Shown: positions 3,356 through 42,253, counted from the stretch's first letter. The stretch is 64,000 bases of DNA from Puniceicoccales bacterium (GCA_031260055.1 JAIRKQ010000006.1:7713-71712), one strand, 5' to 3'. Made by a program: numbers and translations. Notes: a model not told the origin generated them from the sequence alone.

Positions 3356-4390
3356 ATGATTTTAAGTATGGAAGCAATTGTAACCCCGCTAGCACTTGAG
3401 GGTTCACAAAAAGTACGGAATCCACTTGGCGCTGGTGTTTATATTCCAAAGAGAAATACTCATGGAACGATACCCACTGAGAAAAAATGCAAAGATGCCG
3501 ATTTAAATGAGCGACACACAGGGCATGTTCCCAGCCCAGCCCAAAGGGAAAAAATATTCAAACTTACGCAGCAAGTTATCGCTAAGACCTGTAGTTTTGC
3601 GGATGGAGTATCGCTGATTTTAGATGCCAATGGTTTTGAGACTACAAAAAACGTACTTGACGCACTCTCAAATGCTGTGCGATTTGTATTACCAAGGTCT
3701 GGTCATCCAATCGGAAAATATTTTTACAACGTTGAAAAAAAAGAGATCGTATTTAAAAGATTGATCCTGTCCATATCATCAACATGTAAAATAGTTGTTA
3801 AACTTGCGCCCCAATTAATACGTTTACAGGCACTGTCAAAACTGTTTCCGCATATCAGCTTGATCTTAGATCTCGCAGAGTTAGGGCTTAATTATAAGAA
3901 TTTTACCAAAGATGGGCTGACCACAAAAAATGCATTAAAAATAGCTGTTGCTCTATGCTATCATGCCATTTCATGTGCAACATTTGCAATAGCTGGTGCT
4001 AGCGGAACAATATTTGCCTGTGTTTTTGCGGCACGCTTAGCTATATTTTTCAGCTCGCTAGTGGATGAAGGCATGAAAGATACAGCCTTGATCATGCAGC
4101 CAATCGACAAGCTATGGTTTAACAAAAAACTCGCCAAAAATGTTTACTCATTATATGAGTCTGCCTGTCTTGATCCAGGTGGATTTCAACATCAAACAGA
4201 CTGGGGAAGAATGATATGTCTCTCGGTGATTGGCTTAAATTTGTGCAAATCCGCTGCATCTGCAGTTGTAAAACTTATTAGGAACAGCCGAGAAACATCG
4301 GAAACGAACATAACTGAAGTAACACAGCAAGGGAAAGAAGCCATAGAGGATAAAATGAGAATTTATCGATATCTAAAGACCGCGAATTAA
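3356..4390 (+). CDS. Hypothetical protein with a long hydrophobic segment
   Basis: 344-aa ORF fills the gap between cutA and ogt; no recognisable family; ~44-aa hydrophobic stretch. Confidence 0.75.
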   Translation: MILSMEAIVTPLALEGSQKVRNPLGAGVYIPKRNTHGTIPTEKKCKDADLNERHTGHVPSPAQREKIFKLTQQVIAKTCSFADGVSLILDANGFETTKNVLDALSNAVRFVLPRSGHPIGKYFYNVEKKEIVFKRLILSISSTCKIVVKLAPQLIRLQALSKLFPHISLILDLAELGLNYKNFTKDGLTTKNALKIAVALCYHAISCATFAIAGASGTIFACVFAARLAIFFSSLVDEGMKDTALIMQPIDKLWFNKKLAKNVYSLYESACLDPGGFQHQTDWGRMICLSVIGLNLCKSAASAVVKLIRNSRETSETNITEVTQQGKEAIEDKMRIYRYLKTAN

Positions 4391-19554: not shown

Positions 19555-20169
19555 ATGGAATCATCGCAGAAAGCCGAAAATAATGCTTGTCGGATAGGGC
19601 TAACGGAGGACCGGGAAGCTACCTATGGCAATTCCCAGCCGAAGTGTACATCATGCAGTGTCTTTCATGAGAAGGTTATATCTGTACACTCTGGCTCAAA
19701 GGGTTCCTATTGTCTTGAATCTAGGTTTTTTCCCAATCCTCTCAGGATGAGAAAAGTATGTGTAGAGTCTCCGGCACGGCCAAATACTTTCGCTGATACG
19801 AATAGGACAATTAATGTGTTTGATTTATATGCGCAACAAGGGGACAAAATTTTTAAATTGAAAAACAGTATCCTAAAGAACCTAAAGCCTCTGGAGAGTG
19901 TTGAGGTCGTCAAGCTAAAAAGCCTAGTTGATTCCAAGTTTAACTCTGCCTTTCAGGAAAGAAACCTAGGTGTGCCCGACCAGGAAAAATTACAGACCCA
20001 AACTAACGCTTTTTTTGATTCAATAATTTCGTCGATAGTTAAGCCAGAATCTGTGTTACTTGTACGTCAATCGTGGACGTCAACGAGTAAAAGCTGGGGA
20101 GTATACGAGATTTATGCCATTTGCCAATATATTTTAGGTGATATTTTAGGGGGCGCTGAAAACCAGTAG
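19555..20169 (+). CDS. Hypothetical protein
   Basis: 204-aa ORF between mutL and tRNA-Ser; no recognisable motif. Confidence 0.6.
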   Translation: MESSQKAENNACRIGLTEDREATYGNSQPKCTSCSVFHEKVISVHSGSKGSYCLESRFFPNPLRMRKVCVESPARPNTFADTNRTINVFDLYAQQGDKIFKLKNSILKNLKPLESVEVVKLKSLVDSKFNSAFQERNLGVPDQEKLQTQTNAFFDSIISSIVKPESVLLVRQSWTSTSKSWGVYEIYAICQYILGDILGGAENQ

Positions 20170-20420: not shown

Positions 20421-20509
20421 GGAGAGATGACAGAGTGGACGATTGTGTTTGACTCGAAATCAAATGTACCGTAGAGGTACCGGGGGTTCGAATCCCTCTC
20501 TCTCCGCCA
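20421..20509 (+). tRNA. tRNA-Ser(CGA)
   Basis: Acceptor stem GGAGAGA/TCTCTCC, anticodon arm TTTGA-CTCGAAA-TCAAA, long variable arm, T-loop TTCGAAT, encoded GCCA. Confidence 0.96.
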
Positions 20510-20820
20510 AAAAATTCAGTGACCGTTCCCGGGAAAGAAATGCTGTGAAATAGGAACTTCGGAGAAAAGAGGCACAAATTGTTCATGAAAATGGGAAAAG
20601 GAAGGGCCCCATGGTGTGGAAAATCCTACAATTGATACTTCTGAAGATTATTACTTCATATTAATGCAAAAACACAAAAATAAACAAGAAAAATTTTGGT
20701 TCCTTTACTATCCTTTTAAACGTTCTTGGGTTCTATTTACATATCCATAAAATTTGCAAATTATTATTGACAAAGGATAACATCAGCTGCTATTACCCTC
20801 CACCAGAAGGAATTAGCATA

Positions 20821-21933
20821 ATGAATACAAAAAAAAAGACATTTGCTATCTTAATAGCGATTATTGGATGTTTAATTTCTAGTTTTAATTCGAAGCTCGC
20901 TACTGCTGCGATAAATATAAGAGACACGGACGACGAAGCTGAGATTTCTAGACTCATCTCAATTTTTATTGATGGAGCAATATTCCCAACGATGAGTGCT
21001 AATAATTTGCTGACCAGTGCTCTCTTTAGCCATATGACAAATACCAAAGGCTGCCTCTCCAATCCATTTGTCCATGCCATCTATGGTCATAGTCAGAATG
21101 AAGTCATCGCAGAGTATGGTTTCAAAAACGACATATATGGTTATATCCTAGGAGTTGACAATGTTTGGATTTCGGTCGACGAAAAGTATTTCCGCCTGGG
21201 CACTGCCCTAGGGTATGCTCACGGTAAAGTTGCTTCTGTTGGAACAATAATCACGGGCAGTTTCCTCGAGTTAAATTTTGGAGAAGGCGACACGGATTAT
21301 AGCCATGACGTTCACACGGTGAAACTATTTGCTGCCTATGAATCGTTTAATGATAAACGTTTGAAGACTAACATTGGGATTATTTTTGGATATAACTACG
21401 ACATAAATAATTCGCTTGGGAAGAACTCCCTCGAATTTACATCCCACAGCTTCTCCCTAGGAATGAAATTTATAAAAAATCTATATGCCTACAACGGATA
21501 TCAGTTTGGATTATGGCTTCAAACAAACTATAATTTCATTTTCCGAAATACAGACGGAAATAAATTAAGTAGATTTCAAGATGTTGACTTTATCCTCAAA
21601 TCGGGCTATAATTCTCTCGTCACCGTCATCGGCCTTAATGTGGAAAAAGAAGCCTTCAAACATGCCGACAGAAAATTGATACTGTCTTTGAAAACTGGAT
21701 GGGAATGCCCAGTAATGCAACGTACCGACGCCGTTTTGTTTTTGACTGTTACTGCTAACGAACACTATGGGGTTTTTAAATTTAGACGCCCAGTCAAGGA
21801 TGTCGTCATTGTATCATTTAATGCCTCACAAAAGTTGAATAATCACTGGAGCATTGTCGGGTCGTATTCTGCAAGGTTTAACAAAGACTTTTCAGCCCAT
21901 AACCTTTCCGGTGGAGTTGAATATGCTTTTTAG
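20821..21933 (+). CDS. Autotransporter beta-barrel protein AT1 with essentially no passenger
   Basis: Signal peptide MNTKKKTFAILIAIIGCL..., short helical linker, alternating aromatic beta strands, C-terminal GGVEYAF (BamA beta-signal). Confidence 0.85.
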   Translation: MNTKKKTFAILIAIIGCLISSFNSKLATAAINIRDTDDEAEISRLISIFIDGAIFPTMSANNLLTSALFSHMTNTKGCLSNPFVHAIYGHSQNEVIAEYGFKNDIYGYILGVDNVWISVDEKYFRLGTALGYAHGKVASVGTIITGSFLELNFGEGDTDYSHDVHTVKLFAAYESFNDKRLKTNIGIIFGYNYDINNSLGKNSLEFTSHSFSLGMKFIKNLYAYNGYQFGLWLQTNYNFIFRNTDGNKLSRFQDVDFILKSGYNSLVTVIGLNVEKEAFKHADRKLILSLKTGWECPVMQRTDAVLFLTVTANEHYGVFKFRRPVKDVVIVSFNASQKLNNHWSIVGSYSARFNKDFSAHNLSGGVEYAF

Positions 21934-21995
21934 AGTAAGTTTTCGTTGACACGGGTATAGCATTAATTTTTACTGCCCCGCTAGAAGGAACCAAC

Positions 21996-23104
21996 ATGAT
22001 GAATATAAAGGAGAAGAAGATATTTGTTATCTTGATGGTGATTGTTGGGAGTTTAATTTTTAATTTTAATTCGGAGCTTGCTGCTCTTTCAATTCAAAGA
22101 ATGGGCATGCCGCTAAAATCCGATATTTCTGAAATCGTCTCAATTTTTACTGATGGAACAATGTTCCCAATAGTGAGTACTAATAATTTACTGACCGATG
22201 TGCTCTCTGGCCGTATGACAAATATCAAAGGCTGCCTCGCCAATTCATTTGTTCATGCCATCTATGGTCATAGTCAGAATAAAGTCGTAGCAAAGTATGG
22301 TTTCAAAAACAATATATATGGTTTCATCCTAGGAATTGACGATGTTTGGGTATTTGCCAACGAAAAGTATCTTCGTCTGGGTGCTGCCCTAGGGTACACT
22401 CACGGGGAAGCTATTTCTGTCAACACAGTAAGTGTGGGCAAATCCCTCCGCATCAAATTCGAAGAAGGCGACATGAATTATAACCATGACGCCTACACAG
22501 TAAAACTATTTTGTGCCCATGAATCGTTTAATGATAAACGTTTGAAGACTAACATTGGGATTATTTTTGGATATAACTACAACAGAAGTAATTTGGTTGA
22601 GCGGATGTTGCCCTTCGAATATACATCCCATGGCCTTTCCCTGGGAGTGGAATTTATAAAAATCTATACGCCTACAACGGATATCAGTTCGGATTATGGC
22701 TCCAAACGAACTGTAGTTTCATCTTCCGAAATGCAAATGGAAAAGGATTGCAAAAGTTTGACCTTACCCTCAAATCGGGCCATAGTTTTTTCACTACTGT
22801 CGTCGGCTTTAATGTGGAAAAAGAAACCTTCAAACATGCCGACAGAAAATTGATACTATCTTTGAAAACTGGATGGGAATACCAAGTAACGCCACCTACT
22901 ATCACCGCTTCGGCTCTGGACCTTATCGTTGACAAAGTCTACGGGGCTTTTAAGTTTAAACACCCCGCCCAGGATGCTGCCATCGTCTCACTCAATGCCC
23001 TACAAAGGCTGGACCACTGGAGCATTGTCGGGTCGTATTCCGTAAGATTCAACAAAAACTTATCGGCCCATGGTCTCACCGGCGGTGTTGAATATGCTTT
23101 TTAG
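21996..23104 (+). pseudogene. Autotransporter beta-barrel paralog AT2, frameshifted by a 1-nt deletion in an A-run
   Basis: The split ORFs 21996..22853 and 22748..23104 together reconstruct a full AT1 paralog. The A-run at 22658-22662 is A5, versus A6 in AT1 (21474-21479) and AT4 (27919-27924). Confidence 0.85.
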
Positions 23105-23121
23105 GAAATAGAAGGTGCAAG

Positions 23122-23143
23122 GTTCTTCCAAAGTTGGAAGAAC
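23122..23143. repeat. Perfect inverted repeat downstream of AT2 (possible terminator or RNA-stabilising hairpin)
   Basis: GTTCTTCCAA-AG-TTGGAAGAAC; no U-tract follows. Confidence 0.5.
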
Positions 23144-23263
23144 GAACACCTGCCGTTAAAAAACGGGAAAGATAAACATAAAAGGTTGAGCATTTGATGC
23201 TGAAGAATTTTTTGCCCCCGTTTCCCCATTTGCGAAAAATTTACATATTATTTACGAATTTTA

Positions 23264-23291
23264 TTGACGGGCGAAGGAAGAAAAATACACT
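23264..23291 (+). promoter_or_regulatory. Putative sigma70 promoter of AT3
   Basis: TTGACG-16 nt-TACACT, about 20 nt upstream of ATG 23311. Confidence 0.45.
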
Positions 23292-23310
23292 TTAGGCAAA
23301 AGGGTTGAGT

Positions 23311-26300
23311 ATGGGTAAAAAAATTCTTGTTGCCGCAGCGATTATGGTTTGTTTAATTTTTTGCCGTGGTTCAGCATCCGTTGACCCCCTAAACAGAGTC
23401 ATAGGTGAACTGAAGGACTCCACCGAATTCTGGTCAATGGAGGCTCCCGACAGGACGAACGCAGTCACATTTGAAAATAATGGCTCCATATCGGTTGCCT
23501 CCATTGCGGGAGATATCGACAGTGGAATCGCAGCCAATGTTGAGTTTTCTAGCTCTGAGTTCCCTGAAAATGATAAGAAAAACTCCCTGCTCACCGTAAC
23601 ATTTAATAACAATCCCAGCGTTGAAACGGGAGTGATTAATTTCAGGAATCCTAACTATAATATCATGGCCCATATCTATGCGTACAACACAACCACCGGC
23701 CAGTCTGCCGTGGACATTAACCTCGCTGAAGGCGTAAACCTGTCCATTGCTGAAGACGGCACCCATCATCCTGTGCTGGTGGCATATTCTAATGTTACTG
23801 GTACTGAGGATGATGGCAATTCTGTCGCAACCGCCATTCAGGCTGCGAATACAAATTCTGTTACTATCGAAAACCTGGCATCCTTAACCGCTGTTTCTCT
23901 TTTTAATTCTAATTTTAATTCTGATTCTTTTTCCGCAAGTGCTGGGATTGGGGCAGCGGCGGCGAATGACAGTAGCAACAGCAGTGTGGAGGGCCTAAAT
24001 GTAACATTTGGGGATGGCAATATCCTAACCTCTTCTTCTAGTTCTATTAATGTTGCACCTGTTTTTACTTCTTCTGGTAATTCCGCAAGTGCTGGGATTG
24101 GGGCAGCGGCGGTAAATGACGACACTGGCAACAGCGAGGTGAAGGGCCTAAATGTAACATTTGGGGATGGCAATATCCTAACCTCTTCTTCTATTGGTTT
24201 TCCTGCCGGTGTAAGTGCTGGGATTGGGGCAGCAAAGGCGAATGGTAACAGCACGGCGAATAATCTAGACATACGATTTGAGGACAACAACGGCCTAGCC
24301 GCTTCTTCTTATGGTACTCATTCCGCAAGTACTGGGGTGGGGGCAGCCTCGACGAGTGATAGCGCAGCAACAGCAGTAACGGGACTATACGTGCAATTTC
24401 AGAATGACAACGGCCTAACCGCTTCTTCTTATTCTTATGATACTTATTCCGCAAGTACTGGGGTGGGGGCAGCCTTAGCAAGTAATAGCACGGCCAGCAC
24501 GGCCAGCTCCGTTAGGGTAAACATGAACGGTAATCAAAGCATTAGCGCATTGGCCTGTGTTCAAAGTAATCCTTCCAATGCTAAAGTCAACGCCTTCGGT
24601 GCCGACAACACGGATGCGGGCGATGATTTTGGCTGGCGCGTGGGCATATTCGCCGCCGGGGAAGACATTGTTGTAGAGGAAGATGATGAGACTACCATCG
24701 CCAGAGCCATAAATGTGAATTCCACGGTAAATATTTTGGCCGCAAAACTAGGAAAAGAGTGGGAGATTACGGACGGCGTTGCCACTGCAACCCTGGGAGG
24801 TAATCAAGGGACCAGCAGTGCCGATTACGCCCGCGCATTCGCATTGGGCAATGATTTCCAAATTTACATCGGTGGAATGGCCGACCCGGATACCCATGGA
24901 TTTACGCCTGTCTCGGCGCTTGCAGGAACCATCAACGTCGTCAACATAATCGGTGCCATCAGCAGGGGCCGAGATTCTGCTGCAACTACCGGTTCCAGCC
25001 TCACCATCGACAATGCTTGGACGGTGAATACCTACGGCCCCGTTCAAGATCTCGCAAACATTGAAATAAAAGGTGGCGGCGAGTGGAATGTCTATGGGCC
25101 CGCTGAAGGCCTTTCCGACATCCATGTTATGTCGGGTGTTCTCCACATTGCAAAGGATACAAATTATACAAATTTTAACGGTGTCATTGGACAAATTCAG
25201 GATAAAATAACATACGTGGATCCCATAACGAGGGTATCATGCAGAGGTGGTGACGGGGAGATTGGAATAAATGCCGATAATTACCCGTGGAATGGTTCTT
25301 CCGGTGGAAGTTTGGCCTTAGGTGCAGGCCATAGACTTGTCCTCTACGTCGATAGCTCCCAAATGGAAAGCATACAAACACCTTTCTTGGAGAAATTTAG
25401 ACTGGTAACTGGATACGTATCCATCGATGCTGGGATGGAAAATGCGTTAGTCTTTAACGGTGGTAAAATTGCCCTTGCCAACGATTCCAACGGGGATTCC
25501 GCAACAGTCAACTATTGGTTGATCCGGTCCGGGGCAAATGAAAGTGTTGAAGCCGTTGCTGAGATGTTGGGGATGAAAGATTCTTTTGATCCCAACAATT
25601 TTGTGCAGGAAAATGTCAACCTGTTCAGATTATCCGATACTTATGCGGCTTCCCTTTTTGAAGAAAGTTTTTCGGAATATGAATGGTTAGACGGAGAATC
25701 GGCCGTATATCTGTTTAACGATCAAGAGCACGGAATCAGTGGATTATACATAGGAACTGAGCTGGAACAATCCGATGATTTCCTGGGAGAAGTCTATGCC
25801 AATGTGGAACTGGCAGCCCTGACAGTGACGGCCCATAATTTACTTACCAATGCCATCTCCGACCGTCTGACACGGGTAAAAGGTTGTCTTGCTGACCCAT
25901 TTATCTATGCTATCTATGGCCATGCCCATCAAGACGAGCTTACCAGGAGGGGATACCGTAGTAACATGGGCGGTTTTGTCCTGGGTGCTGACAATGTGTG
26001 GGATTTTCCCAATGAAAGATACATCCGTATCGGTGCTGCCTTTGGATATGTCCATGGGAAGACAAAGTTTTCCGATTCCATCGTCGACGCTAAAGAATCC
26101 ACAAAGCATGATATTTATGTGGTAGAACTTTTCGGGGCCTACGAGTTCTTCAACGACAAGCAATTGAAGACCAACGTTGGGGTTACCTTTGGCTATGGCC
26201 GTGGTAATGATACGCTGGATTTAGGTGCCAATGTTAGTGGTACTGGATCTAGAGACACTAAAATTAAATCTGATAATTTTTTCGCGGGCATAGAATTTCT

Positions 26301-26769
26301 CAAGAACCTGTATGCGTACAAGGGATGTCATTTCGGGTTGTGGCTCCGGGCAAATTACAACCACGTTGCCCAGAAAGAACATGAGGAAATGGTAACAGCC
26401 CTAATGGGAATGCAACATGTTTCCTCCGTTAACCACAATTTCCTCACCACCGTTCTTGGTCTCAACCTTGAAAAGGAAATCCTCGATGCGGAATATGCCG
26501 ATAAGAGATGGTTATTATCCCTAAGGACGGGTTGGGAATGCCAAGCGCTGCGGAAACATTCCGACGCCACCATCACATTTGATAATGACTTTGGCGGAGG
26601 TAAAATCAAGCCTGTCTATGGTCAACCCGGCAAAAATGCTGCCATTGTGATCCTTGGAATTTCCAAAAAGTTGAACACTAACTTGAGCATGGTCGGTTCC
26701 TACACAGGAAGATTTAACAGAGAAATCTCCAACCATAGCCTTTCCTGTGGCGCTGAGTATTCCTTCTAG
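23311..26769 (+). CDS. Autotransporter AT3 with an ~800-aa repeat-containing (probably beta-helical) passenger
   Basis: Signal peptide, Asn/Ser/Gly/Ala-rich passenger with repeats, the same linker and barrel as its paralogs (LLTNAISDRLTRVKGCLADPF), C-terminal GAEYSF. Confidence 0.9.
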   Translation: MGKKILVAAAIMVCLIFCRGSASVDPLNRVIGELKDSTEFWSMEAPDRTNAVTFENNGSISVASIAGDIDSGIAANVEFSSSEFPENDKKNSLLTVTFNNNPSVETGVINFRNPNYNIMAHIYAYNTTTGQSAVDINLAEGVNLSIAEDGTHHPVLVAYSNVTGTEDDGNSVATAIQAANTNSVTIENLASLTAVSLFNSNFNSDSFSASAGIGAAAANDSSNSSVEGLNVTFGDGNILTSSSSSINVAPVFTSSGNSASAGIGAAAVNDDTGNSEVKGLNVTFGDGNILTSSSIGFPAGVSAGIGAAKANGNSTANNLDIRFEDNNGLAASSYGTHSASTGVGAASTSDSAATAVTGLYVQFQNDNGLTASSYSYDTYSASTGVGAALASNSTASTASSVRVNMNGNQSISALACVQSNPSNAKVNAFGADNTDAGDDFGWRVGIFAAGEDIVVEEDDETTIARAINVNSTVNILAAKLGKEWEITDGVATATLGGNQGTSSADYARAFALGNDFQIYIGGMADPDTHGFTPVSALAGTINVVNIIGAISRGRDSAATTGSSLTIDNAWTVNTYGPVQDLANIEIKGGGEWNVYGPAEGLSDIHVMSGVLHIAKDTNYTNFNGVIGQIQDKITYVDPITRVSCRGGDGEIGINADNYPWNGSSGGSLALGAGHRLVLYVDSSQMESIQTPFLEKFRLVTGYVSIDAGMENALVFNGGKIALANDSNGDSATVNYWLIRSGANESVEAVAEMLGMKDSFDPNNFVQENVNLFRLSDTYAASLFEESFSEYEWLDGESAVYLFNDQEHGISGLYIGTELEQSDDFLGEVYANVELAALTVTAHNLLTNAISDRLTRVKGCLADPFIYAIYGHAHQDELTRRGYRSNMGGFVLGADNVWDFPNERYIRIGAAFGYVHGKTKFSDSIVDAKESTKHDIYVVELFGAYEFFNDKQLKTNVGVTFGYGRGNDTLDLGANVSGTGSRDTKIKSDNFFAGIEFLKNLYAYKGCHFGLWLRANYNHVAQKEHEEMVTALMGMQHVSSVNHNFLTTVLGLNLEKEILDAEYADKRWLLSLRTGWECQALRKHSDATITFDNDFGGGKIKPVYGQPGKNAAIVILGISKKLNTNLSMVGSYTGRFNREISNHSLSCGAEYSF
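23932..24510 (+). repeat. Five imperfect in-frame passenger repeats of 114-150 bp
   Basis: SASAGIGAA / SASTGVGAA motif starts near 23932, 24082, 24208, 24322 and 24448. Units 1 and 2 share a ~50-bp identical block (gggcctaaatgtaacatttggggatggcaatatcctaacctcttcttcta). Confidence 0.9.
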
Positions 26770-26868
26770 AAAATAGAAAGGCCAGGGGTCTTTTTTAGAA
26801 CGTGTTTAGCCCGTTTTCCATAAATTTACGAAATTTTCGCAAAATCCGTAAATTTTCGTAAATTTTCA

Positions 26869-26896
26869 TTGACAAGTGGAAAGTATTAACTATTCT
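26869..26896 (+). promoter_or_regulatory. Putative sigma70 promoter of AT4, preceded by an inverted repeat
   Basis: TTGACA-16 nt-TATTCT; GGAGG RBS at 26909-26913; 15/16 inverted repeat at 26822-26837 and 26850-26865. Confidence 0.5.
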
Positions 26897-26920
26897 CATC
26901 GCCTCATAGGAGGGTAGAAT

Positions 26921-28372
26921 GTGGACATTTGGGGCAAAGGACATTTGGGGCAAAGGACATTTGGGGCAAAGGACATTTGGGGCAAAGGACATTTGGGGCA
27001 AAGGACATTTGGGGCAAGAATTTCTGTCCTTTTGGTGGCAATCATTGGGTGCCTATTTTTTTATCCCAACTTGAATACTTATGGTGAACCCGGAACTTCT
27101 GTTGAGCCCGGAACTTCTGGTGAGCCCGAAACTTCTGGTGAGCCCGGAACTTCTGGTGAGCCCGGAAGTGTTGGGTCCCAAGGATCAGGTGATAACAATG
27201 GGGACAAGGACGAGAACTCTGATAGCGATAGCCTTATAGACAAATTAAAGGAATTAATAGGACCGAAAATAAAAGAATCAGCGAAAGAAGCCATCCTTCC
27301 TGGCGCCATTGCCATCATTTCTCCATTTCTTGGGAATGAGCTGGCATCCTTGACAGTGATTACCAATAACTTACTGATCAATGCAATCTCCAGCCGTATG
27401 ACAAATGTCAAAGGCTGCCTCGCCGATCCATTTGTTCATGCCATCTATGGCCACATGCATCGGAATATCATCTCAGAATGCGGCTACAAGAACGATATGT
27501 ATGGTTTTGTTCTAGGGATTGATAATGTTTGGTCGCTTAGCCACAAAAAGTATTTTCGCCTGGGCACTGCCCTAGGGTATATTCACAGAAAAATAATACC
27601 TTACGGTACTCTTTCCAGAGTAGGATATACTCCCGATACCACCTTCAGTTTAGATCCTGAACAATTCATTGCAGGTAACGACAATAATGTCTATGCAATA
27701 AACCTGTTTAGTGCCTATGAATCGTTCGATGATGAATGTTTAAAGACTAACATCGGGGTTATTTTTGGATATAACTACAGCAGAGATAAATTCAATATGG
27801 GGAATTTCTACATACCCGAGCTGGGGTTGCCTTCGGATATATTGACGGTATTGAAGATGGTTAGGCTATCCTACATCGAATTTGAATCCAATAGCATTTT
27901 CCTGAGAATAGGACTGATAAAAAATCTACATGCCTACGAGGGATATCAATTTGGCCTATGGCTTCAGGCAAACTATAATTACATCTGCCAGCGTAATAAA
28001 CTGTTACATTTGCTAGGTCATGATATTATAACTGACTATAATTTTCTTACCACCGTCATCGGCCTTAACATTGAAAAAGAAGCCTTCAAACGTGCCGACA
28101 AAAAATTGACATTTTCTTTGAAAGTTGGATGGGAATTCCAAGTAATTCAAAATTTCGATGTTCTCTATACTGTCGCCACTTTTGCTTCTGCTGCTTTCTT
28201 TAACGACGCTAACAAGTTCTTGAGGTATCCCGTCAGAAACACTGCCGTCATATCATTCAATGCTTCTCAAAAGCTGGATGATCACTGGAACATCAGTGGG
28301 TCCTATTACGCAAGATTCAATAAAGACCTTTCGTCCAATAATTTCTCCATTGGCGTTGAATATGCCTTCTAG
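26921..28372 (+). CDS. Autotransporter AT4 with a short passenger and a VNTR in its signal-peptide coding region
   Basis: In frame from GTG 26921; the overlapping ATG 26919 is out of frame and stops at 27072-27074. Signal h-region ISVLLVAIIGCLFF, GEPGTS repeats, shared barrel, C-terminal GVEYAF. Confidence 0.85.
   Translation: MDIWGKGHLGQRTFGAKDIWGKGHLGQRTFGARISVLLVAIIGCLFFYPNLNTYGEPGTSVEPGTSGEPETSGEPGTSGEPGSVGSQGSGDNNGDKDENSDSDSLIDKLKELIGPKIKESAKEAILPGAIAIISPFLGNELASLTVITNNLLINAISSRMTNVKGCLADPFVHAIYGHMHRNIISECGYKNDMYGFVLGIDNVWSLSHKKYFRLGTALGYIHRKIIPYGTLSRVGYTPDTTFSLDPEQFIAGNDNNVYAINLFSAYESFDDECLKTNIGVIFGYNYSRDKFNMGNFYIPELGLPSDILTVLKMVRLSYIEFESNSIFLRIGLIKNLHAYEGYQFGLWLQANYNYICQRNKLLHLLGHDIITDYNFLTTVIGLNIEKEAFKRADKKLTFSLKVGWEFQVIQNFDVLYTVATFASAAFFNDANKFLRYPVRNTAVISFNASQKLDDHWNISGSYYARFNKDLSSNNFSIGVEYAF
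26923..27017 (+). repeat. 16-bp tandem repeat GGACATTTGGGGCAAA, five perfect copies plus one 15-bp copy
   Basis: Units start at 26923, 26939, 26955, 26971, 26987 and 27003; no spacers. Confidence 0.97.
27083..27172 (+). repeat. 18-bp in-frame tandem repeat encoding (G/V)EP(G/E)TS, about five copies
   Basis: Consensus GGTGAGCCCGGAACTTCT; units at 27083, 27101, 27119, 27137 and 27155 (last one degenerate). Confidence 0.95.
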
Positions 28373-30099: not shown

Positions 30100-30160
30100 G
30101 AGTACCATCATTTAACTTGTTGTTTGTAAATTCTTATGTACAATGAGAGGCCTTTACTTT

Positions 30161-30610
30161 ATGGAGTATACGGAAGCAGTAGATATAGTTTCTGAGCTTT
30201 TTAGAATAAGCCAATGGGCTAGTAATGAGTATGGCGAAAAGTATGCCATCCTAGACAATGATATTGAGATTCGGATATTTCAGTCGGCCAGGGATAAAAT
30301 GGTAATACAGGGAATGTTCGGGGAACCCATCCAAAACCTATCGGCAGCGAATGCAAGCGAAGTAAAGTTTCGTTATCTTCTTCAGGCCAATTTTATTAGA
30401 ATTATCCAATACGATGATGTTTTATCCATAGATAAACGCACAAATCGATTAACTACGACACGACATATTTCTTTATTTGGAACTTCCATGGAAAAAGTCC
30501 TCGATGTGGTCGAATCTTTTATCAAAAATGTAGACTTTTGGGATATGGCCTTGAAAAGGAAGCAATCGTTTGCTACAGTATCTCCTCTATTGAAATTTTC
30601 TCTAAAATAA
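30161..30610 (+). CDS. Type III secretion chaperone, CesT/YscB-like
   Basis: ~150 aa, acidic, with the LLQANF...LSID motif and a C-terminal amphipathic helix (VESFIKNVDFW). Its stop overlaps the sctC start (TAATG). Confidence 0.7.
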   Translation: MEYTEAVDIVSELFRISQWASNEYGEKYAILDNDIEIRIFQSARDKMVIQGMFGEPIQNLSAANASEVKFRYLLQANFIRIIQYDDVLSIDKRTNRLTTTRHISLFGTSMEKVLDVVESFIKNVDFWDMALKRKQSFATVSPLLKFSLK

Positions 30611-32496
30611 TGGGAATAGTAAAAAAGTTTTTTCAGTTTGCATTGATTTTCGTCTATTGTGCACTCTACGCAGAAGAAAGAGATCCCATTGGCGTCTCGC
30701 CATATGGGGCACTTCCCTTTTCAAAGTCGAGTTATTACCACTTTGCCAAGGACCAAAATTTATCTGCCCTCATTCAAGACTTTTTTTCCATGCAGGGTAT
30801 AACCGTTGTGATCAGTGATAGAATAAATTATACCGTAAATGGCAGGTTCAGTAAAATGGATCCGGCAGAATTTTGGAGTTACATAACCAAGGCCTATGGG
30901 TTGGTTTGGTTCTTCGACGGTAAAATAATGTTTGTCTATACAAATTCCGAGCTGCAAACACAGATTTTCAGGATGGATCCGGATGGAATTGGCACATTGT
31001 CTGTGATTCTATTACGCCTAGGATTTATTGCTTCCGATTTTTCGTTTCGAGCTGTCGGCGAAGCAAATGTTCTAATAGTAACTGCACCTCCTCAGTATAT
31101 TGACGTGATAAACGACATAGCAACCAAGTTTGTCCCAAGTAAGATTTCTGACACCACCATTGTGAAAATCATACCGTTAAAATATGCCTGGGCCTACGAT
31201 ATGACTTTTAACTATGCCAATGGTTCGATTTCCGTCCCCGGTGTCTCAAGTTTATTACAAAGTATTATTACGGGCCAGCAATTATCAGCGGCGTTCTCTC
31301 CTTTCAATGTTAATGTAGGAGCAAATCAGAAGCAAGTAGAATATCAGCAGATGGTAGGGGTGCTCGACGATACCCCTCCATACGCAAAAGACATAAATAA
31401 CAATATCAAGAATATGCAAAAGGATGGGAAAAATTCCGACAAGGGCAAAAATGACAAATCTTCGGGAGACAAATCGTCCAGCGATGGTAACAGCATAGAT
31501 ATTTCAGGAACTTCTTTGCCTGGATTTATAACCTGTGATCAGCGGTTAAATGCGATAATAATTCGCGATAGACGGGAAAATATGCCATTTTACGAAGAAA
31601 TTATATCGAAACTCGATGTACCATGTGAAGTTATAAAAATTGACGTTGCTATCGTAGACGTAAATAAAACCTCTTCCCTTGTTTTTGGGCTTAGTGGCAT
31701 TAGCGCTACCCTTTCCAATGGGAAGCCGATTGGTATTTCGATGTCAAAAACCGACCTCAATGCGACAGCCGTTGCTAACTTGGCCTCAACTGGCTCAATT
31801 GCTGGGAAATTGGGTATAGCAAAAAATGCCGAGATAAGTTATGCTATTGATGCTTTGGAAAAAAGCAGTAATGGGCAGGCAGTTTCTCGACCATCCGTTC
31901 TAACACTCGATAACGTCGCAGCAATTTTAGAGACCGATAAAGTACACTACGCTACAGTATCAGGAACAAATAATTCGAACGCATATACCCAATCTGCAAC
32001 TACCAAGTTACAGGTTGTTCCACATATCATTCCGGGAGATGTTGATGAAAATGGTAAGCGTAAAATGAAGCTATTCGTTGACATATCCGACGGAAGTTTT
32101 GAGGTCAATGAAGAGGGTGACGAAACCTCTACTGTAACCCAACACTCCCTGAATACGCAATCCGTACTGTACGAAGGGCAGAGCTTAGTCATAGGAGGCT
32201 ATGACTCGGAAATAAACCAAAAAAAGGATAATGGAATCCCTGTATTGCAGCATTTTCCACTAATAGGAACTTTGTTCAAGCATACGACTAATAGCAAAGA
32301 AGTCAAAGAACGCATTTACATAATTTCTCCATCCGTCATAGAAATTCGCAGCGATGACCATAAGCACGATAGATTCGTCCAAAATGGGCAGCTCACAGCC
32401 GAAGGAACCCTTGAAGCTGACAATTATCCGTTAACCATCCCATGGCCAAAAGAAAAACGTCCTAAGCCTAAACTATTTAGAACAAGAATCGATTGA
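30610..32496 (+). CDS. sctC: Type III secretion outer-membrane secretin SctC (YscC/HrcC family)
   Basis: Signal peptide; N0 domain YHFAKDQNLSALIQDF...VNGRF...AYGLVWFFDG.IMFVY.NSE; LKYAWAYD; DQRLNAIIIRD; secretin core SRPSVLTLDN..A; IPVLQHFPLIGTLFK. Confidence 0.92.
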   Translation: MGIVKKFFQFALIFVYCALYAEERDPIGVSPYGALPFSKSSYYHFAKDQNLSALIQDFFSMQGITVVISDRINYTVNGRFSKMDPAEFWSYITKAYGLVWFFDGKIMFVYTNSELQTQIFRMDPDGIGTLSVILLRLGFIASDFSFRAVGEANVLIVTAPPQYIDVINDIATKFVPSKISDTTIVKIIPLKYAWAYDMTFNYANGSISVPGVSSLLQSIITGQQLSAAFSPFNVNVGANQKQVEYQQMVGVLDDTPPYAKDINNNIKNMQKDGKNSDKGKNDKSSGDKSSSDGNSIDISGTSLPGFITCDQRLNAIIIRDRRENMPFYEEIISKLDVPCEVIKIDVAIVDVNKTSSLVFGLSGISATLSNGKPIGISMSKTDLNATAVANLASTGSIAGKLGIAKNAEISYAIDALEKSSNGQAVSRPSVLTLDNVAAILETDKVHYATVSGTNNSNAYTQSATTKLQVVPHIIPGDVDENGKRKMKLFVDISDGSFEVNEEGDETSTVTQHSLNTQSVLYEGQSLVIGGYDSEINQKKDNGIPVLQHFPLIGTLFKHTTNSKEVKERIYIISPSVIEIRSDDHKHDRFVQNGQLTAEGTLEADNYPLTIPWPKEKRPKPKLFRTRID

Positions 32497-40150: not shown

Positions 40151-40249
40151 AGCGGGGATACCTACGTTAAACAAGTAATCAGACAAGAATTTTTTGTAAA
40201 CAACAATTTGTTTTGCATATACAGAAACTTTTTGTACACTTTGACAAGA

Positions 40250-42253
40250 ATGAGATCGAAGAGGGTTAGGTTTTATACATTGGTTTTGGCAGCTACTTTG
40301 TCGTTATCTGCCGAACCATCCTTGAATAACATCGAAGAATTACAACGAAAAATATTCATCCAATCTACCAAATTTGATTCTAGTAATCCAATATCAGAAA
40401 TAACAACAGAAATAAATTCAACGGACAACGAAACACCTCCCGTAGTCAAATCAAGGAGAAAAAAAACCAATACCACATTTTTTAGCAGCAAAAATTCCCT
40501 TCACCAAGCCACTTGCCAAACCACTCGCCAAACCACCCGGAAAGAATTATTAGAAGAGGTTGATTTAAATTGGCAAACGTCTGCCCCAAAAGATTCGATT
40601 TTAGACAACCATTCAGCCTCTGACTTACATGAAAATACGCTTTTCGAGAGGGCAAATAGAATTATCATTCCCCGAGTAAGATTTATAAATACCCCTCTGT
40701 CACGGGTAATTGAATCGTTGGCCAACATGGCGGAGGTCAATGATCCCTCTGCCGATAATAATGGAAATGGAACAAACATTGTATTGCTTGGAATGGAAAG
40801 TGTAGAAAAAGAACCGGTGGTAAATTTAAATTTGAAAAACATTTCTTTCGGCCGTTTGATTGAATTGATTGCCCGATCGGTTTCCTGTCAATTTGATATC
40901 ACCCAAGATACGATCATTATTTATAAACATGACATAACCGAAGGCGTATTAGATATGCAATTTTTCCCCATATCTCGAGCAACTCTGGTTCGGTTAACAG
41001 GAATTCAAGGCATAAATCATCACATATACAATTCTCCAGGCTCCCCAGAAAATGTTGCCGATGAAGAACGTGCCATAAAAGAATTTTTTCAACGGGCAGG
41101 AATAGATTTCAAAGACATTACCGGTAGCAATTTAGCATTCGATGGTTCTCAGATAATAGTTACCAATACGGGAAGAAATTTAAGAAAAATTAGCAACATA
41201 CTTCGAAAATACTCCGAAGTTAAACAGGTCGAAATTGAGACGAAGTTTCTGGAAGTTCAGCAAGGAGTGCTCGATGAGTTAGGCTTTCGTTGGCAATTTG
41301 GAAGTAGAAACGCTGACAATAAAATATTTTTTCAAACCGGAAAAACCGTTGATAATTCACAGCGTGACAATCTGCGTACGCTAGTAGAAACATTTGCATC
41401 TACAAATTTTTCAAGGGGGGATGGTAAAATAGTTGAATCCAATCCAGACATCAGCCCCATTACTTTACCAAATCAACCGCCCGGGCTTCCGGGGCAAATA
41501 AACTTGGGAGCATCAGCCATACCTCTGACGAATTTTACCGGCGTATTAAATAGTCTACAGTGCAATGTTATGATTCAAGCATTGGAACAACACGCCGGGT
41601 CAGATCTTATGAGTGCTCCAAAGCTAACAGTGCTTTCTGGAAAAACGGCAGAAATTGTCATAGCCATGGAATTACGCTATCCCCAAAGCTATGGGGATAC
41701 ACATTCCGAAGTTGGCACAGGGTATTCCGGCTTGGGCACGTCGAGCTCCGCTGGAGTGACGATAACGGCTGGTACACCACAAAATTTTACCACGCGCAAC
41801 GTTGGTGTAGAAATGAGTGTAACTCCCATCGTCGAAGTGGATGGCAGCATCAGTTTGCAACTTGAACCAAAGGTTACCGAATTCGAAGGGTTTGTCGAAT
41901 ATGGTGGAGTAAATGTCGCCGTAACGTCGGGCAGTACGGTTACCATTCCTTCCGGATTTTACCAGCCGATATTTTCAACGCGAGAAATCCACACAGAAGT
42001 TAATGTTTTCGACGGAGCAACCGTTGTCATGGGCGGTCTAACCCGCGAAGAAGTAAAAGAGGTGAATGACAAAGTTCCCATATTGGGTAACATTCCTCTG
42101 CTCGGCAAGTTGTTTAGATCGAAAAGTGAAACCATCCAGAAACGAAACCTGTTGATTTTTGTCACTGCCCACACCATCTCCCCTTTGGGAATCAAAAAAT
42201 TATTGCCTAATGTGGAACAATCCCCGATAGTTCCGACCCAAAGCTCAAAGTGA
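40250..42253 (+). CDS. Type II secretion / type IV pilus-like secretin (GspD/PilQ family)
   Basis: Signal peptide, STN/N3 domains, QVEIETKFLEV, LMSAPKLTVLSG..A, VGVEMSVTP, GATVVMGGL, KVPILGNIPLLGKLFRS. Confidence 0.88.
   Translation: MRSKRVRFYTLVLAATLSLSAEPSLNNIEELQRKIFIQSTKFDSSNPISEITTEINSTDNETPPVVKSRRKKTNTTFFSSKNSLHQATCQTTRQTTRKELLEEVDLNWQTSAPKDSILDNHSASDLHENTLFERANRIIIPRVRFINTPLSRVIESLANMAEVNDPSADNNGNGTNIVLLGMESVEKEPVVNLNLKNISFGRLIELIARSVSCQFDITQDTIIIYKHDITEGVLDMQFFPISRATLVRLTGIQGINHHIYNSPGSPENVADEERAIKEFFQRAGIDFKDITGSNLAFDGSQIIVTNTGRNLRKISNILRKYSEVKQVEIETKFLEVQQGVLDELGFRWQFGSRNADNKIFFQTGKTVDNSQRDNLRTLVETFASTNFSRGDGKIVESNPDISPITLPNQPPGLPGQINLGASAIPLTNFTGVLNSLQCNVMIQALEQHAGSDLMSAPKLTVLSGKTAEIVIAMELRYPQSYGDTHSEVGTGYSGLGTSSSAGVTITAGTPQNFTTRNVGVEMSVTPIVEVDGSISLQLEPKVTEFEGFVEYGGVNVAVTSGSTVTIPSGFYQPIFSTREIHTEVNVFDGATVVMGGLTREEVKEVNDKVPILGNIPLLGKLFRSKSETIQKRNLLIFVTAHTISPLGIKKLLPNVEQSPIVPTQSSK

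Follow-up and report, generated by a model that had tools for sequence, protein, structure and literature searches.

A tandem array of four autotransporter paralogs

The window analyzed here, a stretch of 64,000 nucleotides (nt) from a Puniceicoccales bacterium (GCA_031260055.1 JAIRKQ010000006.1:7713-71712), contains four paralogous genes, AT1 to AT4, which lie on the same strand between a tRNA-Ser(CGA) gene and a gene for a class II aminoacyl-tRNA synthetase (Table 1). As judged from predicted structures and sequence models, the four paralogs are classical (type Va) autotransporters. They belong to a narrowly distributed family in which variation is concentrated in the predicted extracellular loops of the barrel and in which at least one member, AT4, carries a repeat that probably switches the gene on and off. 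A tandem array of four paralogs at 20821-28372 had been proposed in an initial annotation of the stretch, and the listing and translation of open reading frames (ORFs) confirm it. The translations and their alignment also recover the junction motif, NLL..(M/L)T..KGCL..(P/S)F..AIYGH, and the EY(A/S)F terminus that had been described as common to all four proteins. The C-terminal ~314 residues can be aligned throughout, with amino acid identities to AT1 of 64% for AT2, 42% for AT3, and 53% for AT4.

The passengers differ in size as first described, being minimal in AT1 and AT2, about 90 acidic, low-complexity residues in AT4, and about 800 amino acids (aa) in AT3. In AT1 and AT2, the signal peptide is separated from the first strand by approximately 50 residues, most of them in a single helix, and mature AT1 has ~7 residues ahead of this linker helix. 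The AT3 passenger is rich in A, S, G, and N, its internal repeats follow the motif S-A-S-A/T-G-I/V-G-A-A ... L-x-V-x-F-x-D/N-x-N, and its homologs occur only in the Puniceicoccales. The linker and barrel of AT4 begin at nt 27353.

Two features had been missed in the initial annotation, a frameshift in AT2 and a 16-nt tandem repeat at the 5' end of AT4. In AT2, the deletion of one nucleotide (A6 to A5) shifts the frame and leaves two ORFs (21996-22853 and 22748-23104), and adding back a single A yields a 369-aa protein with an EYAF end. The A9 run near the start of AT1 is possibly slip-prone as well.

Each of the four genes has its own upstream TTGAC(A/G), in agreement with the initial annotation, and the element is invariant when the upstream regions are aligned with those of homologs in other genomes. 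A generic sigma-70 promoter scan returned 21 sites against 19.1 expected, not above chance, and terminators were fewer than expected; the sole basis for assigning promoters is therefore the conservation of TTGAC across species. Immediately upstream of TTGAC, A/T-rich motifs (TTTCGTAAA/TTTGCAAAA) with a period of ~10 bp occur at AT1 to AT3 and at homologs in L003, L004, L005, L022, and L023, where related loci or contigs are labelled L001-L027 and homologous proteins P00xx. These motifs could represent an UP-element, curved DNA, or the site of a shared regulator.

Table 1. Features of the array and its borders, with positions counted from the first nucleotide of the window
Feature	Position	Strand	Description
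tRNA-Ser(CGA)	20421..20509	+	left border of array
TTGACA upstream of AT1	20767..20772	+	-35-like; invariant in aligned homolog upstream regions
AT1	20821..21933	+	370 aa; signal peptide, linker helix, 12-strand barrel, C-terminal EYAF; essentially no passenger
A9 homopolymer in AT1	20829..20837	+	codons 3-6, Lys-rich n-region; A5-A7 in orthologs
AT1 linker helix	20929..21036	+	residues 37-72; predicted (model)
AT1 12-strand barrel	21067..21924	+	residues 83-368; predicted (model)
TTGACA upstream of AT2	21946..21951	+	
AT2	21996..23104	+	closest AT1 paralog; interrupted by -1 frameshift
AT2 frameshift site	22658..22662	+	A5 run; AT1 has A6 there (KNL codons)
TTGACG upstream of AT3	23264..23269	+	TTGACGGGCGAAGGAAG conserved upstream of AT3-like gene in L021
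AT3	23311..26769	+	1152 aa; signal peptide, ~790-aa all-beta passenger, helix 823-854, 12-strand barrel 864-1150
AT3 passenger repeats	23912..24494	+	five imperfect in-frame units of 114-153 nt (38-51 aa)
A/T-rich repeat upstream of AT4	26821..26867	+	TAAATTTTCG, ~10-bp period, 4.9 copies; just upstream of AT4 -35 element
TTGACA upstream of AT4	26869..26874	+	
AT4 Shine-Dalgarno and overlapping starts	26908..26923	+	AGGAGGG-N5-ATGTG; ATG 26919-26921, GTG 26921-26923
AT4	26921..28372	+	483 aa from GTG; extended signal peptide, ~90-aa acidic spacer, C-terminal EYAF
AT4 16-nt tandem repeat	26923..27017	+	GACATTTGGGGCAAAG; perfect; 5 full copies plus 14 nt (5.9 copies)
AT4 acidic-passenger repeat	27077..27167	+	in-frame 18-nt unit, 5.1 copies (E-P-G-T-S-G)

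Predicted structures of the barrels and signal peptides

Structure prediction and sequence models both support the proposal that the barrels are of the autotransporter type. The TIGR01414 model matches AT1, AT2, and AT4 at 22.4-22.7 bits (cutoff 16), and PF03797 matches 40 of the 48 aligned family members (E<=1e-3), with a best E-value of 1.5e-25. The AlphaFold2 model of AT1, computed with the 48-sequence alignment, has a pLDDT of 84 and a pTM of 0.82 and consists of a signal-peptide helix (residues 3-21), the long linker helix, and 12 strands. The AT3 model (pLDDT 84) ends in 12 strands, and its barrel has the same translocator matches as AT1. The top Foldseek matches of the AT1 model are the translocators of AIDA-I, EspP, EstA, BrkA, NalP, and Hbp (E-values 5e-13 to 1e-8), and target-normalized TM-scores between autotransporter translocators and the AT1 and AT3 models reach 0.78. 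A profile search of PDB sequences with the family returned no match, such that only the comparison of folds ties the family to solved translocators. In both models the long helix directly precedes strand 1, and the models align with the pre-cleavage transport units of EspP and AIDA-I with this helix included.

A passenger available for display is predicted for AT3, where it is ~790 aa and all-beta, is marginal in AT4, and is lacking in AT1 and AT2. AT1 and AT2 are thus barrel-plus-linker members of the family and not full autotransporters in a functional sense. Foldseek matches of the whole AT3 model, passenger included, are dominated by the barrel.

By inspection, the n-region of the AT1 signal peptide is basic, its h-region (AIIGCL...) is hydrophobic, and an A-x-A site is present; at the other end of all four proteins, EY(A/S)F fits a C-terminal aromatic beta-signal. 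A lipobox-like IIGC is present in the signal peptides of AT1 (20866-20871) and AT4 (27043-27048), and IIGC or VIGC is found in most members of the short-passenger clade. AT2 (IVGS) and P0016 (IGY) have another residue in place of the Cys, which is retained in P0005, P0008, P0009, and P0033, where it is preceded by Trp (IWC). The Cys is positioned within the hydrophobic core and the conserved A-x-A site lies downstream of it. Some members may be lipidated, in the manner of NalP.

Variation is concentrated in the predicted extracellular loops

Nucleotide identity along the barrel forms a mosaic, in which conserved blocks reach 98% between AT1 and AT2 and 88-89% between AT1 and AT4 and are separated by blocks of 37-60%. 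With the canonical autotransporter topology laid on the predicted AT1 model, the variable blocks are predicted to be the extracellular loops L2-L5. Across the 27 members of the short-passenger clade, positions that face the extracellular side have a mean entropy of 2.19 bits, compared to 0.72 for the periplasmic side together with the helix and 0.90 for mid-strand positions (Mann-Whitney p = 1.5e-30), and insertions and deletions occur exclusively in L2-L5. The expectation that the predicted loops differ strongly is therefore borne out by entropy and indels alike. The comparison of AT1 with AT2 gives a dN/dS of 0.85 for the extracellular side and of 0.42-0.44 for the remainder, which, combined with the loop-focused entropy and indels, supports the view of the array as part of a diversifying surface-protein family.

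Short-passenger members are the norm in a narrow family

The family is narrow, with 187 representatives at E<=1e-3 among 1.84 billion in an exhaustive profile search. All 21 genomic loci and all of the named proteins originate from termite-gut Puniceicoccales metagenome-assembled genomes (MAGs), at 38-56% identity and with several copies per MAG. The short-passenger clade accounts for 27 of the 49 full-length barrels, and most of its members with an assembled 5' end have an intact N-terminal signal peptide. The members that were examined keep a Shine-Dalgarno sequence and the conserved -35 element. An additional tandem array of four short forms, the first of them frameshifted, is present in L026. 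Passenger-less barrels had been considered unusual, but within this family the short forms are the most common type. Based on their sequences, they are a conserved majority and the norm for the family, not remnants or debris.

It should be noted that the array itself appears to be particular to this lineage. Genes of the AT3 type and the AT1 type are found at separate loci in the relatives, and thus the four-gene array of the window is a lineage-specific assemblage. Many of the family genes lose their 5' end at contig ends (L002, L006, L012, L019, L020, L024, and L025), two of them inside perfect repeats, and assemblies of these genomes break systematically at the family.

Junction conservation, recombination, and duplication

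It had been proposed that the DNA of the junction is near-identical among AT1, AT2, and AT4, synonymous sites included, and that the junction permits the swapping of passengers or gene conversion. As an account of the main source of diversity in the family, recombination at the junction is improbable. Junction identity among the three genes is only 73-90%, no higher than in other conserved membrane or periplasmic blocks, and the near-identity at synonymous sites was overstated, as synonymous codons are shared at 82% between AT1 and AT2, 68-69% between either of these and AT4, and 39-46% with AT3. Identical codons do not occur in longer runs than overall identity predicts. The junction comprises the last part of the linker helix, strand 1, and a short coil between the two, and because it is a structural element its conservation can be explained by purifying selection. 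A MaxChi-type permutation test on the informative sites of AT1, AT2, and AT4 was not significant (p = 0.08-0.97). The site pattern uniting AT1 and AT2 against AT4 prevails in 16 of 18 bins of 60 nt, the first and the fourth being the exceptions, with no local excess of alternative patterns. The synonymous sites of AT3 are saturated relative to all other copies, junction included (pS 0.72-0.80), and throughout the family the class of passenger agrees with the barrel clade.

Some exchange among paralogs is nevertheless apparent. In its 5' module (promoter, 16-nt unit, and a signal peptide of the CLFFYP type), AT4 matches P0005 and P0008. Its linker and barrel, however, are placed with P0002, P0003, and P0007 at 99.5% bootstrap and never with P0005, P0008, or P0009. 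This discordance, the only one of its kind, implies that paralogs have exchanged a 5' module at least once, though with a breakpoint upstream of the junction. As P0003 and P0007 lack their 5' ends, the exchange may have gone in either direction. AT1 and AT2 are sisters relative to the positional orthologs (100% bootstrap), a pattern that concerted evolution could also produce. Further, the AT1 core has a higher dS to the positional orthologs (0.85) than the neighboring mutL has to L001 and L004 (0.47-0.50), which is compatible with the replacement of one paralog by another. With a dS of 0.35, below that of mutL, the duplication that gave rise to AT1 and AT2, or their last homogenization, is younger than the split from L001 and L004.

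A 16-nt repeat as a candidate switch in AT4

The 16-nt array of AT4 consists of units that are 100% identical, is the top-scoring tandem repeat in the window, begins 2-4 nt past the start codons, and encodes the n-region of the signal peptide. As the unit is not a multiple of three, the array is a candidate for slipped-strand switching. At the present five units, the frame from the ATG is closed after 51 codons and the overlapping GTG is in frame. In silico, the ATG frame is open at 3, 6, and 9 full units and is otherwise closed after 34-67 codons. Among homologs, P0009 is in the ATG frame (ATG-TGG-ACA, MWT...) and P0012 is in the GTG frame, its ATG frame being closed after four codons.

The number of units varies across related loci. 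The positional ortholog of AT4 in L021 has a proto-repeat of ~1.4 diverged copies, L022 has a single diverged copy, L023 has 1.9 copies and a frame closed from its only ATG, and L024 has at least 4.9 copies, its contig beginning within the array. AT4 combines three of the features expected of a contingency locus, namely a perfect non-triplet repeat at the 5' end, a copy number that differs among orthologs, and a frame that opens and closes in silico as units are added. Independently, a paralog of a different class in L012 has a perfect 7-nt array (TGTCCTT) of at least 15 copies in its signal-peptide region, and its homolog L027 lacks this array. When two public contig collections were scanned for exact matches to two 16-nt units in a row, no additional copies turned up. 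Peptide repeats of the kind that further non-triplet DNA repeats would generate were absent from 204 family proteins, for which gene callers usually place the start downstream of such arrays.

Two other repeats were observed in L021. The AT4-type gene is interrupted in the MTNVKGCL junction, where 13 nt are duplicated in tandem (ATGACAAATGTCA, two copies at 4002-4027), and the deletion of one copy restores an ORF of 375 codons; the duplication may exemplify how such repeats are seeded. At 1-104, the ATG of a minus-strand gene is followed after ~15 nt by 8.8 perfect copies of a 10-nt unit (GCTGCTGTTC), which reach the end of the contig. From its sequence, this array is a further candidate for a repeat that shifts the frame, here in a related genome.

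The disrupted genes invite a second interpretation, that the short copies (AT1, AT2, and AT4) are decaying remnants, with repeats and frameshifts that would be neutral by-products of the degradation of a symbiont genome and with nothing regulated. The frameshifts in AT2 and in the first gene of L026, the duplication in the L021 gene, and the closed ATG frame of L023 would fit such decay, as would the reduced endosymbionts among the relatives of this clade (PMC8204192). It is nonetheless very improbable, because the short forms are too common within the family and retain their signal peptides, -35 element, and Shine-Dalgarno sequence, dN/dS stays at 0.2-0.45 in helix, strands, and turns with variation restricted to the loops, and the perfect identity of 5-15 repeat units points to recent and ongoing expansion and contraction.

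Similarly, the short barrels might be housekeeping outer-membrane proteins, channels or structural components derived from autotransporters, with loops that vary under pressure from phages or predators and a 16-nt repeat that only extends the signal peptide. The GTG that is in frame at the present copy number, with the equivalent GTG used by P0012, is in keeping with this possibility, as are a mature AT1 composed of helix and barrel only and the abundance of the family in every related MAG. Its probability is low all the same. Each single 16-nt step changes the frame, which could not be tolerated in a purely structural peptide repeat, and the L023 gene is out of frame from its only ATG. If the predicted linker helix is situated within the pore, as is the case for other autotransporters, a channel function would be unlikely, and genes for type III secretion near the array (see below) point to a host-associated lifestyle.

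Genomic context and relatives

The order mutL, hyp204, tRNA-Ser, and AT gene is conserved in L001 and L004, where both contigs end at the array. Relative to the window, MutL is 87% identical in these loci, while the AT1 ortholog is only 52-57% identical. The product of hyp204 (19555-20169, 204 aa, between mutL and tRNA-Ser) has no match in Pfam or NCBIfam and is also fast-evolving, at 66-70% amino acid identity to L001 and L004 compared to 87% for MutL and with a dN/dS of 0.31 compared to 0.13. Transfer RNA genes often adjoin the loci of the family: a tRNA-Ser(CGA) gene does so in the window and in L001 and L004, a tRNA-His gene precedes the AT3-like genes in L009 and L021, and a tRNA-Leu gene follows P0009 (L022 is among such loci).

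Downstream of the array, an ORF for a CesT-like chaperone (weak, E = 3e-4) lies directly upstream of a gene for a type III secretion system (T3SS)-type secretin with an SPI-1 N0 domain (30143-32496 for the pair), and a second secretin gene follows 8 kb further on (40208-42253). The chaperone gene and the two secretin genes suggest type III secretion and a lifestyle associated with host cells. Endosymbionts of termite-gut protists (the 'Nucleococcus cluster') have been placed in this part of the Verrucomicrobiota (PMC8204192).

Interpretation

Collectively, the array probably represents a lineage-specific type Va family that is shaped by birth-and-death evolution and hypervariation of the loops, with on/off switching of at least AT4 by slipped-strand mispairing. 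Each protein would be exported through its Sec signal peptide, and the C-terminal 12-strand barrel, preceded by the long linker helix, would insert into the outer membrane. AT3 would display its beta-rich passenger of ~800 aa and AT4 its acidic spacer of ~90 aa, while AT1 and AT2 may expose little beyond the loops of the barrel. Birth and death would proceed through recent tandem duplication (AT1 and AT2), rapid divergence and indels in the four extracellular loops, and frequent inactivation, as in the frameshift of AT2. The switching of AT4 would be stochastic, with slipped-strand mispairing of the 16-nt repeat in the signal-peptide coding region adding or removing a unit and thereby shifting the frame relative to the overlapping starts (ATGTG). 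With the present five full units, the ATG frame would be OFF and only the weaker GTG would be in frame. Surface exposure and variation of this kind may play a role in contact with, or evasion of, the host, be it a protist or a termite.

A more specific reading is offered tentatively and is considered rather unlikely in its entirety. In the Verrucomicrobiota associated with protists and termites, passenger-less barrels may have been recruited as variable surface antigens similar to Opa, the loops of the 12-strand barrel being the functional part that diversifies. Individual copies would be switched by unusually long repeats (7-16 nt) in the signal-peptide region, behind overlapping starts, possibly with three expression states.

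Several observations weigh against the interpretation of the array as a type Va family with a switched member. PF03797 scores AT2 and AT4 at 23.4 and 22.7 bits, under the gathering score of 26, and it has no match to AT1 or AT3. The orientation of loops and turns depends on the canonical topology plus a predicted model, and the frameshift of AT2 could be a homopolymer sequencing error. Slipped-strand mispairing probably switches AT4, a view drawn from the structure of the repeat and the copy numbers of orthologs, but a GTG is in frame now and a TTG is in frame at every third unit, and the repeat might only lengthen the n-region. Additionally, assemblers can collapse repeats, and the unit numbers in MAG contigs may be affected. 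The nature of the organism, its association with a host, and any function of the proteins are extrapolated from relatives only.

Comparison with known systems

In the literature searched, neither this family nor any natural family of autotransporters without passengers was found to be described, and absence from such a search is not proof of absence. The closest parallels are provided by phase-variable surface proteins of pathogens. In Neisseria, AutA and AutB have AAGC repeats in the DNA of the signal sequence with strain-variable copy number, and many alleles are out of frame or disrupted (PMC5118866). As in AutA and AutB of Neisseria meningitidis, which are phase-variable type Va proteins, the AT4 repeat is located in the signal-peptide region. 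The system described here differs in its unit of 16 nt (7 nt in the paralog of a relative) instead of 4 nt, in the two overlapping starts in different frames ahead of the array, in its occurrence in the Verrucomicrobiota, and in the near absence of a passenger. Further, AutA and AutB are known to be phase-variable, whereas the switching of AT4 is predicted from sequence.

For AT1, AT2, and AT4, the best functional analogy is Opa of Neisseria, a multicopy family of outer-membrane barrels with variable extracellular loops and a frame-shifting CTCTT repeat in the signal-peptide region. Opa barrels are 8-stranded and recombination among opa copies is prominent. Conversely, the barrels of this family have 12 strands in the predicted models and follow a long linker helix, their sequences are unrelated to Opa, and recombination between the copies AT1, AT2, and AT4 was not detected by the tests applied to the three barrels.

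The resemblance to the chlamydial Pmp proteins proposed in the initial annotation holds as an analogy. The Pmp proteins and the rickettsial Sca proteins are lineage-specific autotransporter expansions of host-associated bacteria, with a conserved C-terminal barrel, very different passengers, and frequent frameshifted or split members; they are mostly large, and some pmp genes are subject to homopolymer-based switching. The array family shares the expansion of paralogs with a conserved C-terminal barrel, but most of its members lack a passenger, and the generic beta-domain is the only sequence relationship. A Pmp-like reading of the AT3 passenger was rejected, as it has no Pfam match to the Pmp repeat PF02415 and its motif is SAGIGAA...FxDxN and not GGA(I/L/V)/FxxN.

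In Haemophilus influenzae, lic1, a gene for the phosphorylcholine of lipopolysaccharide, has a CAAT repeat after alternative starts in different frames, which allows for more than two expression states. The ATGTG ahead of the AT4 array is a similar arrangement, with a unit of 16 nt in place of 4 nt and in a different kind of gene, and the use of both starts in AT4 would be the counterpart suggested by the overlap.

The proposed mechanism is one known from pathogens, and what stands out here is the Verrucomicrobiota lineage, the long repeat units, the overlapping starts, and the predominance of passenger-less barrels. If the interpretation is correct, it would take the biology of contingency loci beyond the well-studied pathogens of animals, to uncultured symbionts in the termite gut that belong to the Verrucomicrobiota and also carry genes for type III secretion. 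It would further imply that a passenger is not required for an autotransporter translocator to be retained, to multiply, and to diversify, which bears on how such barrels fold and on a function of their own. The arrays and repeats would explain why assemblies break at these loci, and the fast-evolving genes of the array could be used as strain markers.

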